Under the pieces are notes generated by a model, which ran no database searches, had not been told where the DNA came from, and saw only the letters and a program-made list of their open reading frames with translations. A stretch of 64,000 nt of DNA. Origin: Candidatus Marinacidobacterales bacterium. GTDB lineage: Bacteria > Acidobacteriota > Vicinamibacteria > Marinacidobacterales > SMYC01. Shown here in pieces: positions 4,926 through 36,656 of the stretch; within the stretch, counting starts at the first letter, position 1, and the number at the start of each line of letters is the position of its first letter. A program made the translations under genes and the position numbers. The DNA lies in NCBI GenBank assembly GCA_965237955.1, contig OZ250169.1, positions 3,104,001-3,168,000 on the forward strand. The letters are read 5' to 3'.

Positions 4926-5301
4926 CTCGATGGCGACCAGGTGCGCGATGACCTCGACGGCCTCGGCCGCCTTCGCCCTGCGCGCGAGCTGGTTCAGGTT
5001 GTTGCCGATGAGACACTAAGTTGCTGGTTTATGGCCTATTTCAAAAGGGCCGAGTTTTGGCACAGGACGGGCGCGATCTCTTCCCAACGCTCCAGTTGTG
5101 CGAGCAGCATGTACTGTTGCCAGCGCGCTTTGCCGTCGCCGCCCGATTCGGCATTCCGAAGATCGGCCAAGGCGTGTTCGATGCCGGTTTCCAGGTCGAG
5201 GGACGGCTCATGCCTAGACTCCATCGCTGTCAACTGAGATTGCCAGAAATCCCAGAGGGGTTGTGCTGAATCACGGATGAACAGCTCCTTCGTTCGCTCA
5301 A

Positions 5302-32857: not shown

Positions 32858-33510
32858 AAAGTGACCCCCGGCAAAGCCGGGGGCCTATTCATAAGAGCCC
32901 CTCGAAGGGGCTGTTCATGAGCCCCCTAAAGGGGGCGATCTTGCTCCCCAACTACGAGCCCGACCAGTCCATATTCAGCTGGTCCAGACGTTGGTCCTCC
33001 TGCTCTTGGAATGTACTTGCGGACCATCTCTTCGTCCAAGCCTACGGTCGACACGAAGTAACCGCGTGCCCAGAAGCTTTCGCCGGTGAAGTTGCGTCTG
33101 CGTCCGCGGAAGTTCCGTGCCACCGAGATCGCACTCTTGCCTTTGATGAACCCCACCACGTTCGACACCGCAAACTTCGGTGGGATGCTGATGCACATGT
33201 GGACGTGGTCCGACATCAAGTGGCCCTCCAGAATCCGGGCCTCTTTTTGTTTCGCCAGCTCGTGGAGAATCTTTCCCAGATGCGTTCTGATTGCACCATA
33301 CATCTTCTTCCTTCGGTACTTCGGGATGAACACAACGTGATATTTGCAGTCCCATCGTGTGTGGGATAGGCTCTTGTATTCTTTCACCTTGGTAGTCCTC
33401 CTTGTTTGGAAGTTCGCGCTTTCCAAGGAGGACTTTCTTTCCTACTTCCTTACACGGTCAAACCTCTGGGAGTCACCCCGGCAGAGCCGGGGGTTTACCT
33501 CAATGAATTA
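32858..33510 (-). mobile_element. tnpA: IS200-like element (tnpA from GTG 33387, frameshift near 33010)
   Basis: YHVVFIPKYRRK, DHVHM (HUH), FWARGYFVSTVG; terminal hairpins CCCCCGGCAAAGCCGGGGG and CCCCGGCAGAGCCGGGG. Confidence 0.88.
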
Positions 33511-33603
33511 AGTGTTGGCGGCCAGCCCCTAACCGGTCTGCGTGCTAGAGTTTGAACCAGAATTCTGAAGACACAGTTCTCTCATCGTCAGGGCCGAGCC
33601 GAA

Positions 33604-33930
33604 GTGAAGAATCGCAGATGTCTCAATCCCGCATGTCCGTTGCGGGGCAAAGTCAGTTCCGGAAACATCGTTCGCCACGGATTCTACCGAACCAGGTCCG
33701 GGAAACGCCGTCGATACCGGTGCGGCGAGTGCGGAAAGACGTTCTCCTCGACGAAAGGCACGCTCTACTACCGTCTCCAACATCGAAGAGCTACTTTCGA
33801 TGGGGTCATCGCTCTCAGAGTCGAGGGCGTCAGCATTTCCTCGATTTCTCGGATCGAAGGGATTGCCTGGAACACCGTCGCCCGCTGGCTCGAGAAGGCA
33901 GCCCAAGTGTGTCGTCGATTCAACCACTTG
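33604..33930 (+). pseudogene. IS1-family transposase N-terminal fragment
   Basis: CLNPAC..RYRCGECGKTFS Zn ribbon + HTH; cut by a type 1 end. Confidence 0.7.
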
Positions 33931-33988
33931 ATGGCGGAAGCACCGATTTATGGCCTATTTCAAAAGGGCCGAGTTTTTGCGCAGGACG

Positions 33989-34231
33989 GGGGTCGAGAAG
34001 CTGCGCACCGAGCCGGTGTTCGTGCTCTGGATCGAAAACAAGGAGTTCCAGTGGCTCGAGCCGACCATCACCACCGAGCAGATCGCCGAGCTTGGCGGCT
34101 GGGATCCGTCGAAGGGCGTTCAGCAGATCGACCTTGCCACGAACAAGGCACACACACTCAAGCCGGGTGAAATCGTCGATCTGAGGGATATCAAGACCTT
34201 CGTGAAAAAGATCGGCTGGCGACGTGGCTGA
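33989..34231 (+). pseudogene. Ubiquitin-like (multi-ubiquitin domain) protein, 5'-truncated
   Basis: LWIENKEFQWLEPTITTEQIAELGGW...LKPGEIVDL, C-terminal Gly (GWRRG*); starts at a type 1 end. Confidence 0.7.
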
Positions 34232-34635
34232 GCGCGAGCTCCGCCTCGAGGAAGAACACCGGCTGATCGCCACGGTCTTTCCAAGCGTCGTTCAGTCGGG
34301 GGATTGGTTCCTCATCCCGGACGACGCTCGGGCGACGCGGTACGGCTGGACTCTGGATCCGTTTCCGGTTGCGTTTCACGCACAGCCAGGACACCCGGGG
34401 CAGGTGCCATACGGTATATACGTGCCGTCCTCCGCACAGGCCGGCGGCCAAGTGCCGAACAACTTCAACGGCAACGCGAGCAATCGGCCGCCGTTCGAGG
34501 GGCAGTGGGGTGTTCTCTCCTGGCAGGGCGACGACCAAGGAATCCCCTGGGTCCCGGCGCAGCGGATTCGCGAGGGGGCCAACCTGTTGAACTTCCTCAT
34601 TCACGTTCGACGAGCGGTTCAAAGAAGGTGTCTGA
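34224..34635 (+). CDS. Prokaryotic E2-like protein (Prok-E2_E-like), apparent +1 frameshift near 34600
   Basis: WFLIP..GW..VAF..PGHPGQVPYGIYVP..WGVLSW..W.P..NLLNFL; removing one base gives TFDERFKEGV* overlapping the next GTG. Confidence 0.7.
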
Positions 34636-35176
34636 ATCCACTAAGGAACGGAGGCTCCGCTTCGAGAGCAAGGCGCATTACCAAGCATTTCGCTCCGCGC
34701 TCGTGTGCGGAGCATACGCATACTATCGCGAGCAAGGGGCTTTTCTCTTCGCGTCCCCGGCGGCAAATGGAGAGCTGGACGTCGTTGATGTCGCCGTGCT
34801 CAAGACGGCCGATTTCGTTATGCAGTCGGCCGGCTACGTGGAGCTGCACGACGATGCGCTCCAGGAGATGATCGTCCGTGCGCATAGGACGGACACCGCG
34901 CTGATGGAGGCTCACTCGCACCCCCTCGCGGAAGGGCCTCGGGTGCGTTTTTCGTCCTTCGATTGCGAGGGCTTGGCCGACATCGGGCCGCAGATGTCGT
35001 GGCGACTTCCAGGCCGGCCCTACATCGCCTTGGTCTTAGGTCGGGATGCGTTCGATTCCCTTTACTGGGAAGGTCGAGAGCGAAGGCCTCGGGGCTCCGT
35101 GGACCTTGTCGTCGCCGGGCAACTGCTACGCGCGAGTCGTGAATCCGAGCGCTCTTGGGGGCGAGACCATGGATAG
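34628..35176 (+). CDS. JAB/MPN metallopeptidase
   Basis: EQGAFLF, EAHSHP...FSSFD JAMM motif. Confidence 0.8.
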   Translation: MSESTKERRLRFESKAHYQAFRSALVCGAYAYYREQGAFLFASPAANGELDVVDVAVLKTADFVMQSAGYVELHDDALQEMIVRAHRTDTALMEAHSHPLAEGPRVRFSSFDCEGLADIGPQMSWRLPGRPYIALVLGRDAFDSLYWEGRERRPRGSVDLVVAGQLLRASRESERSWGRDHG

Positions 35177-35978
35177 GTTCGACAGGCAACGGAAGATCTT
35201 CGGAGACGAGGGACAGAAGCGCCTGCGCGCCGCGACGGTTGGTGTCGTCGGCGGGGGAGGCCTGGGCTCGTTCATAGTGCTCGAGCTTGCCTATCTGGGG
35301 ATTGGGAAGATCCTAATTGTCGACCAGAAGCTGCTCAAGTGCTCGAATCGGAACCGGTTGGTGGGTGCTTGGGCGTCGCACCCAGACGGGACGCCCAAGG
35401 TCCAGCTACTACGCGACCTCGCGGGACTGATCGACTCCAAGATCGAGATCGAGCTGGTACAGGACGGTGTCGAAAGCTCCGATGCACAAGCCGCACTCGC
35501 AAGCGTGGACATCGTTGTGGGATGCGTCGACCACGATGGCCCTCGGTTCGTGCTGAACGAATTCTGCTGCAAGCAAGGTCTGCCGCTTATCGACGCGGCA
35601 AGCGATACAGTGCATGAAAAGGACAGGGTTCTCTTCGGAGGGCGGGTTTGTGTCGCAACGCAGGAGACGGGCTGCCTCGCGTGCTTCAAGGTGTTGGACC
35701 AGAACGAGCTTCAGGACTACTTCGCTTCGCCACAGCAGCGGACTGACCGGGGTGCGATCTACGGCGTGCCCGAGAGCGCCCTGGCCGGTGGCGGTCCGTC
35801 GGTGGTCACGGTCAACGGAGTGGTAGCGTCGATCGCGGCGACAGAATTGATGGTGTTGGTGACCGAGATCCGTGCTCCCATCGCGCATCAGGACTGGCGT
35901 GGCCATGAGGGTTGCCTGCTTCGTGTTGTCGACCGCGAGGAAGGCTGCTACTACTGTGGCTTGCGTCCTGTTGATTAG
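35169..35978 (+). CDS. ThiF/E1-like adenylyltransferase
   Basis: RFDRQ, VGGGGLGS, SNRNRL, GCVD, CLAC and CYYC Zn pairs. Confidence 0.88.
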   Translation: MDRFDRQRKIFGDEGQKRLRAATVGVVGGGGLGSFIVLELAYLGIGKILIVDQKLLKCSNRNRLVGAWASHPDGTPKVQLLRDLAGLIDSKIEIELVQDGVESSDAQAALASVDIVVGCVDHDGPRFVLNEFCCKQGLPLIDAASDTVHEKDRVLFGGRVCVATQETGCLACFKVLDQNELQDYFASPQQRTDRGAIYGVPESALAGGGPSVVTVNGVVASIAATELMVLVTEIRAPIAHQDWRGHEGCLLRVVDREEGCYYCGLRPVD

Positions 35979-36656
35979 CCGGGTCCTATTGCTCACTACG
36001 GTACTTTCGAGTGAACGAACGATTTCGGTCACTCCCCGATGGCCTCCGCCCACGCGGGCGGTGCCGTCCTGTGCCAAAACTCGGCCCTTTTAACTGAAAG
36101 GGATGTCCGAGTCTATGTCAGAATCAGCGGCACAGCGGCAGCGACACCTGTGCTCCGCAAAAAGTCGATCCGGCGTTGATTACGTGGTTTAGACCTGCCA
36201 TGCTCGGCTGCCTTGTGCCGGTCGACCCGACGGCGCCACCGGCGTCTTAGGAACGTGGAGAGGCTCGCTCTTGCGACTGTTTTCGAATATCCGGTCTATT
36301 GTTCTGGACGCCATCGCGTTCGCTCGCAACCTATGCCGCTCGCGCCGCGCCCTCGCCGCAGAGAACTTTTTCCTTCGGAAGCAGCTCACGTTCTTTGTCG
36401 AGCGTAAGCAGGCTGTGCTCCGCAAAAAGTCGATCCAGCGTTGATTGCGCGGTTTAGACCTGCCATGTTCAGCTGCTTTCGCTCCGATCGACCCGACGAC
36501 GCCACCGGCGTCTTATGAACGTGGAGAGGCTCCCTCGGGCCAGACGATTGTAAAGCCTACGGCCCTTGGCCCGGTCGCGAACACAGACACTAAGCTGCTG
36601 ATTTATAGTCTATTTCAAAAGGGCCGAGTTTTGGCACAGGACGGGGGGGACACCAG

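Follow-up and report, generated by a model that had tools for sequence, protein, structure and literature searches.

What kind of system is encoded by the four short genes at positions 33989–35978 (+ strand) of the analysed window, a 64,000-nt stretch of a Candidatus Marinacidobacterales genome (G000:C1:3104001–3168000, where G000 denotes the genome that carries the studied operon), and does this copy still work? A sequence-only reading of the locus had proposed a ubiquitination-like operon of Bil or Bub type, excised between two insertion sequence (IS) ends and probably inactivated.

The genes lie in the order Ubl remnant, E2, JAB and E1, and every start codon in the operon overlaps the preceding gene by 8 nt. 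The Ubl remnant (33989–34231, +) matches Multi_ubiq (E 1.6e-5) and ends in RRG-stop. It is followed by a BubB-like E2 gene (34224–34635, +; GTG start at 34224; 136 aa in relatives) with Ser99, Tyr63 and no His two residues after the Ser, by a stand-alone JAB/JAMM peptidase gene (34628–35176, +; 182 aa) and by a stand-alone E1 gene (35169–35978, +; 269 aa) with a single adenylation domain, CxxC pairs at 169/172 and 260/263, and a crossover-loop Tyr198. The JAB matches Prok-JAB at E 0.003, below the cut-off, and keeps all of its motif residues (E35, H96-x-H98 and S109-x-x-D112), and the E1 matches the Pfam ThiF family at E 9.5e-36. Searched alone, neither the window E2 nor that of the relative G008 has a Pfam match, and PADLOC returns nothing for the Ubl, E2 or JAB and generic E1-E2 matches for the E1. 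Order, profile matches and overlaps thus bear out the proposed gene set, including the separate JAB and E1 genes, and the two features on which the sequence-only reading had staked itself, a beta-grasp fold in the first ORF and a UBC fold in the second, were both found, the latter in a BubB-like model.

Comparison with an intact relative shows what this copy has lost. The E2 is present in 3 of 61 related genomes searched, G000 among them, and the search for intact homologous operons that had been suggested was successful: G008 (locus L004) encodes a Ubl of 236 aa that carries three Multi_ubiq domains, an E2 of 136 aa, a JAB and an E1, and upstream on the opposite strand lie an HTH gene and an ImmA/IrrE-type peptidase gene. 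The match between the window and G008 begins with the base immediately following the IS end (33989), at a GGGGT site that resembles the usual flank of the 1428-bp IS, so the described 5′-cut, Gly-terminated Ubl is cut exactly at 33988/33989. What remains, 80 residues in all, corresponds to residues 157–236 of the G008 Ubl, that is, the last strand of beta-grasp domain 2 and the whole of domain 3. For Ubl residues 1–156, the HTH and ImmA genes and the DNA between the genes, no match was found anywhere in G000 (assembly 98% complete, 6% contamination), and we therefore rejected a move of the missing half to elsewhere in this genome. G008 has a strong sigma-70-like promoter (TTGACG-17-TATAAT) 90 nt before the Ubl; window positions 33400–36300 contain no sigma-70-like site. 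The G008 Ubl is also similar to three-domain Ubls with solved structures (E 1.8e-24), and by our count in the alignment it retains all four of the intra-dimer Ca2+ ligands. The solved proteins are reported to form Ca2+ filaments by means of their domains 1 and 2 (10.1101/2024.11.21.623966); because those are the domains deleted here, the filament domains are lost. The comparison upholds the proposed loss of the promoter and the Ubl N-terminus, and the left junction is a genuine IS-associated, one-sided deletion in an IS-dense island.

The idea that the operon was excised between two IS ends is not supported. The flanking sequences belong to the terminal inverted repeat of the 1428-bp element, which carries an rve_3 transposase and has 24 full copies and 501–511 ends in G000, clustered in a few islands; 16 of these ends lie within the window (for example at 5069, 12682 and 50212). 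Around the operon the median gap between IS ends is 1.5 kb and 60% of gaps are at most 2.2 kb, and at this density ends on both sides are expected. Oppositely oriented ends of this type do flank the genes as had been noted, but both are mere stubs without transposase, of 44 nt (33945–33988, +, abutting the cut Ubl) and 27 nt (36065–36091, −), and the element bodies lie outside the operon. On the right, host DNA joins the end of a different repeat with 26 genome copies (35999–36064, +) at 35999, the actual right-hand host junction, and the 27-nt stub is nested inside that repeat. A composite transposon, or an excised cassette mobilised by two flanking IS ends, would account for the opposite orientation of the ends. 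It is disfavoured, and in our judgement barely plausible, given the stubs, the foreign repeat at the right junction and the expected flanking; moreover, the operon is single-copy in G000, and there are neither two complete IS copies nor a transposase-linked end pair.

The IS landscape has further features. Outward flanks of the 1428-bp IS favour GGGT/GGAT, target-site duplications of at least 5 bp were found at 0 of 91 adjacent end pairs, a search for empty sites found none, and three head-to-head pairs of ends enclose just 24–27 bp. Left of the operon, 32926–33944 holds nested remnants, namely a transposase gene of IS200 type (Y1_Tnp) and a truncated piece of a zinc-finger/HTH transposase, which we take to be IS1-like and whose end cuts the IS stub.

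A second lesion lies within the E2 gene. In the window, comparison with G008 reveals a single additional T near 34600 (34600–34601, +), a +1 frameshift that swaps the last 10 E2 residues for 89 others, puts the natural stop at 34633–34635 out of frame and extends the ORF as read to 34871; the 85 E2 homologues are mostly 132–136 aa long with TFEERFxxGV-like ends. The translational coupling proposed earlier is consistent with the 8-nt overlaps, but the frameshift, which had gone unmentioned, breaks it between E2 and the JAB start. Contigs from public sequencing runs carry the extra T in X2 and X3 and lack it in X1 and X5, and the IS–Ubl junction is spanned without differences by contigs of X1 and X2, which are one sample and possibly the source of the assembly. 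Since both features recur in public-run contigs, sequencing error was rejected as the cause of either. A 361-nt X5 contig is identical to 33989–34270 and then carries on into upstream Ubl sequence similar to that of G008; hence there is an allele without the cut. These contigs are unphased and several have a depth under 6 (X1 contigs under 5); the assembled genome carries the frameshifted allele.

The E1, by contrast, shows no change at columns conserved in at least 10 of 11 relatives, which counts against inactivation. Its residues 54 and 57 (35328–35342), in the ATP-binding loop, are Lys where relatives are acidic, a difference that may weaken adenylation. We rejected these as signs of decay, as the X5 contig differs there at only one other site, and they may be lineage variants. 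With its IS truncation and frameshift, the copy in the window is nonetheless likely inactive.

To which family does the operon belong? Type I and II BilABCD operons likewise consist of four separate genes in the order Ubl-E2-JAB-E1, and Type II Bil can have three-domain Ubls and CapH/CapP (Chambers et al., 10.1101/2023.09.26.559546). The Bil E1, however, is built of IAD, AAD and CYS domains with catalytic Cys417, and the Bil E2 has Cys138 (10.1101/2023.09.26.559546), whereas the E1 here has a single domain and the E2 is Cys-free. Of the two assignments offered by the sequence-only reading, Bub-like therefore stands and Bil does not, for lack of the catalytic cysteines and the IAD and CYS domains. 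The antiphage evidence for Bil, which had been mentioned, does not transfer: the authors of the Bub study report finding no phage protection (10.1101/2024.11.21.623953), and Bub antiphage activity is likewise described elsewhere as not demonstrated (PMC13373217).

Bub systems are reported to conjugate through E1 Tyr370 and E2 Ser333 (Ye et al., 10.1101/2024.11.21.623953), and candidates for both residues are present here. The best structural matches of the E1 are to BubCD (Z 27.3–27.6), tied with MoeB (26.8); among the strong PDB-chain matches, BubCD and MccB alone span the crossover loop in one stretch. That loop contains no conserved Cys. Tyr198 is invariant in the 12 E1s aligned, and the loop YG is found in 34 of 36 E1s, both misses being cut by contig ends. 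The Tyr198 region of the E1 model has a pLDDT of 50–56, and we equate Tyr198 with Bub Tyr370 by position, not by residue-level alignment.

For the E2, the predicted G008 model (pLDDT 92.6) has Citrobacter BubB as its first-ranked Foldseek match (TM 0.61, E 0.2), and by VIA BubB scores Z 12.3 (rmsd 2.5 over 117), with the next E2 at Z 8.2. BubB is also the sole match below E 0.1 of the E2 profile A5 (2e-8), and 65 of 98 E2 family members match Prok-E2_E at E ≤ 0.05; the close-homologue profile A1 had no match by sequence in the PDB. Neither the native-frame window E2 nor the G008 E2 contains a Cys. After two long repetitive matches had been dropped, 137 of the 148 remaining representative rows keep Ser99, or 137 of 144 once the 4 gapped rows are set aside. 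Tyr63 aligns with BubB Asp299 in the profile alignment. Ser99 and position 101 reach BubB Ser333 and His335 only via the alignment of a sister clade that has Asp and His, and the HMMER register of profile A5 itself placed Ser99 on S337, not S333, so that the equivalence of Ser99 and Ser333 is presumed from this indirect alignment. Because the E2 folds like BubB with Ser99 and the single-domain E1 has the invariant Tyr198, the operon probably works like the cysteine-free Bub systems, as judged from sequence and predicted models.

The remainder of the active site is different. Type I Bub E2s are reported to have invariant His335 and Asp299 (10.1101/2024.11.21.623953), and the window E2 has Gln101 and Tyr63 in their places. 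The two positions co-vary: among the 137 Ser-bearing rows, 111 have Tyr and a non-His, 15 Asp and His, 2 Tyr and His, and 9 other combinations, with no row having Asp without His. In a quick unrooted tree, a single branch (SH-aLRT 85) divides the Tyr/non-His from the Asp/His E2s, and the change may thus have been a single event. A Ser without the flanking His and Asp may be unreactive, given that these residues are absent and that the published loss-of-function mutant of BubB is the S333A/H335A double (10.1101/2024.11.21.623953). The sister clade (the P0203–P0234 group) consists of stand-alone E2s with Asp/His and an SWH motif; one of its loci, L032 on a Bradyrhizobium plasmid, has a phosphotransferase gene between E1 and BubE.

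The intact relatives form a widespread family. A profile search yielded 162 E2 clusters at 50% identity, and we examined 47 loci (13 from genomes, 1 from a plasmid and 33 metagenomic, with one duplicate omitted and several near-duplicates remaining) from Acidobacteriota, Planctomycetota, Gammaproteobacteria, Deltaproteobacteria and others. The order Ubl-E2-JAB-E1 holds in all 47 as far as contigs reach, with the complete four genes in 35; the JAB motif is present in 44, the remaining 3 being cut off. Ubl and E2, separate in the window, are fused in 21 of 42 related loci; JAB and E1 are fused in one of 40 and separate in the other 39 and in the window. Unfused Ubls end in RG-stop in 20 of 21 cases, and Ubls are single-domain in 28 of 42 related loci. 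Four intact relatives gave dN/dS values of 0.06–0.30. The operon neighbourhoods contain no recurrent conserved metabolic gene. Several metagenomic contigs with Ubl-E2-fused members (L041–L050) have adjoining type I restriction-modification-like genes, as judged from ORF sequences. A search of the same phylum gave weak matches in 3 of 400 other genomes, all of them Asp-type Bub-like loci of another clade; viral contigs yielded no relative, with sequence patterns (A3) so narrow that this is not evidence of absence.

Upstream, 22 of 25 loci with at least 1.8 kb of upstream DNA have an HTH gene, an ImmA gene or both. The divergent pair of HTH and IrrE/ImmA M78 peptidase genes in intact relatives resembles CapH and CapP (PMC13373217, 10.1101/2024.11.21.623953). 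Matches of these regulators to Pfam M78 and PADLOC profiles are weak (capP E 2.9e-8, capH E 0.003), the branch uses several unrelated HTH/ImmA pairs, DNA-damage sensing is putative, and in the window the pair is deleted.

The closest described system is Type I Bub (6E.1/DUF6527; BubAB, BubCD and BubE in Citrobacter sp. RHBSTW-00271), with which the branch shares the domain order, a BubB-type UBC fold with Ser in place of Cys, a single-domain E1 with a crossover-loop Tyr and no conserved Cys, a Gly-terminated Multi_ubiq Ubl of one or three domains and, in intact relatives, CapH/CapP-like regulators. What it lacks is BubE. The gene bubE (DUF6527) is described as present in all Bub operons (10.1101/2024.11.21.623953), and 6e operons were listed with a metal-binding protein (Iyer et al. 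2006, PMC1779556); with a local BubE profile, for which its own training loci served as positive controls, we found it in none of 29 loci with at least 1 kb downstream. Of 14 genomes, 3 contain the BubE family PF20137, each time far from the operon and next to BubBD genes of Type II. In the Type I rows of Table S1 of the Bub study that we covered, JAB is always fused to E1, and some operons have separate Ubl and E2. With BubE absent, JAB and E1 separate, and an E2 without His335 and Asp299, the operon is outside Type I Bub as defined, quite apart from the truncation and frameshift of the window copy. Type II Bub (6E.2; BubA, a BubBD fusion and BubE) shares the oxyester-type Ser and Tyr residues and Multi_ubiq Ubls; it differs in its E2-E1 fusion (DUF6791+ThiF), its BubE and its usual lack of JAB, whereas here JAB separates E2 from E1. 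The description of the operon as a divergent member is correct in that it differs from the defined types, although the absence of BubE and the lack of the E2 His and Asp had been missed. Table S1 catalogues DUF6527-containing operons (10.1101/2024.11.21.623953), which is why BubE-less ones are absent from it; our literature search found no published account of BubE-less operons, and the 2026 NSMB journal version of the Bub study may discuss more types.

We consider it probable that the window holds an inactive member of a branch that is sister to Type I Bub and has no BubE; for intact operons of this branch, cysteine-free protein tagging is predicted. For chemistry, regulation and biological role we infer the following scheme. 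A divergent HTH repressor and ImmA-type metallopeptidase, similar to CapH/CapP, would silence the promoter as long as neither DNA damage nor infection occurs. The homodimeric E1 would adenylate the terminal Gly of the Ubl, hold the Ubl as an oxyester on Tyr198 and hand it to E2 Ser99, from which it would pass to lysines of target proteins with no E3 involved. Where Ubl and E2 are fused, JAB would release the Ubl; it would also be the sole eraser of conjugates, a role suggested by the intact JAB in operons that have no BubE and whose Ubl has a Gly terminus from the start. Three-domain Ubls may form Ca2+-dependent filaments through domains 1–2. In the window copy, the IS-associated deletion took the regulators, promoter and filament domains, and the +1 insertion the last helix of the E2. 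The intact relatives likely act in stress or phage defence. More tentatively, and with slightly less than even confidence, we propose that intact members are a third, widespread Bub type, with the tag passed on from an E2 Ser lacking the His/Asp pair, a conserved Tyr at the Asp position and JAB replacing BubE as eraser.

The absence of the Bub E2-site His and Asp from 111 of the 137 Ser-bearing rows, together with the original prediction that 6e E2s are inactive (PMC1779556), would also fit an E2 without catalytic activity that serves as a Ubl-binding adaptor, with the E1 passing Ubl from the adenylate or from Tyr198 to E2-recruited targets. We think this unlikely: Ser99 is among the most conserved positions across about 160 clusters at 50% identity, and the BubB Ser is reported to be required for conjugation in both Bub types, of which Type II uses other helpers (10.1101/2024.11.21.623953). 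Nor do the E1 sequences, whose best matches are MoeB, Uba4 and ThiF, make a sulfur-carrier system of ThiS/ThiF or MoaD/MoeB kind anything but highly improbable in place of protein tagging, against a UBC-fold gene that adjoins the Ubl in every case and is frequently fused to it, an upstream repressor/peptidase switch and neighbourhoods devoid of a recurring metabolic gene.

The remaining alternatives concern the relation to Type I Bub and the state of the copy. An ordinary Type I operon in which bubE was lost and the fusions came apart locally, or one supplied with BubE from elsewhere, would have the same domains in the same order; G000 does hold two bubE genes elsewhere, and Table S1 includes Type I operons with unfused Ubl and E2. 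It is very unlikely in view of the 29 loci devoid of bubE, the 11 of 14 genomes in which it was not found, its position with Type II BubBD genes where present, and the single branch that separates the two E2 groups in the quick tree. As for the window copy, an ORF at 33950–34231 runs in frame from an ATG at 33950 inside the IS stub and could encode a 93-aa single-domain Ubl, expressed by read-through transcription without the HTH/ImmA switch and alongside a frameshift-free E2 allele. Ubl domain 3 alone is reported to bind E1 in Citrobacter (10.1101/2024.11.21.623953), single-domain Ubls are common in the family, and separate contigs of run X1 contain the IS junction and a T-free E2. Such a working copy is nevertheless decidedly unlikely: an in-frame insertion is expected by chance in one of three cases, the region is devoid of a sigma-70-like promoter, the assembled genome has the frameshift, and the X1 contigs are shallow and unphased. 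An inactive remnant of the BubE-less branch thus remains our preferred reading of the window copy.

G000 has other loci of related kinds. About 40 kb before the window, L024 (G000:C1:3062.9–3065.0 kb) is a second ubiquitination-like operon, in which a short Ubl-like ORF ends in PGPAS-stop, a putative E2 of 134 aa bears an SRP motif, and a protein of 503 aa combines a JAB-like N-terminus with a ThiF domain; an IS end lies upstream and no BubE nearby. L022 (G000:C1:132.1–133.7 kb) and L023 (G000:C1:401.7–404.2 kb) are Type II Bub loci. In one of these two, BubBD (DUF6791+ThiF) and BubE are present and an upstream Ubl was not seen; in the other, BubBD is 5′-cut by the same 1428-bp IS and BubE lies beyond another IS piece. 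Degenerate CRISPR-like arrays of two repeat types adjoin the BubE gene at L023:5400–6250. Altogether, three of the four Bub-like loci in G000 look damaged.

The broken copy is of little weight in itself. It does catch a population in the course of losing a putative defence operon, public runs containing cut and uncut as well as frameshifted and intact alleles, and its family shows that cysteine-free ubiquitin-like systems reach beyond the DUF6527-defined catalogue. If intact members are indeed a third Bub type, their active site would solve oxyester chemistry in a different way, one that escaped notice because the published catalogue was drawn up from operons with DUF6527. The E2 of this branch offers a natural test of whether serine oxyester reactivity needs the His/Asp pair, and the intact four-gene versions with single-domain Ubls are small, simple to reconstitute and could help to find the targets and role of Bub.
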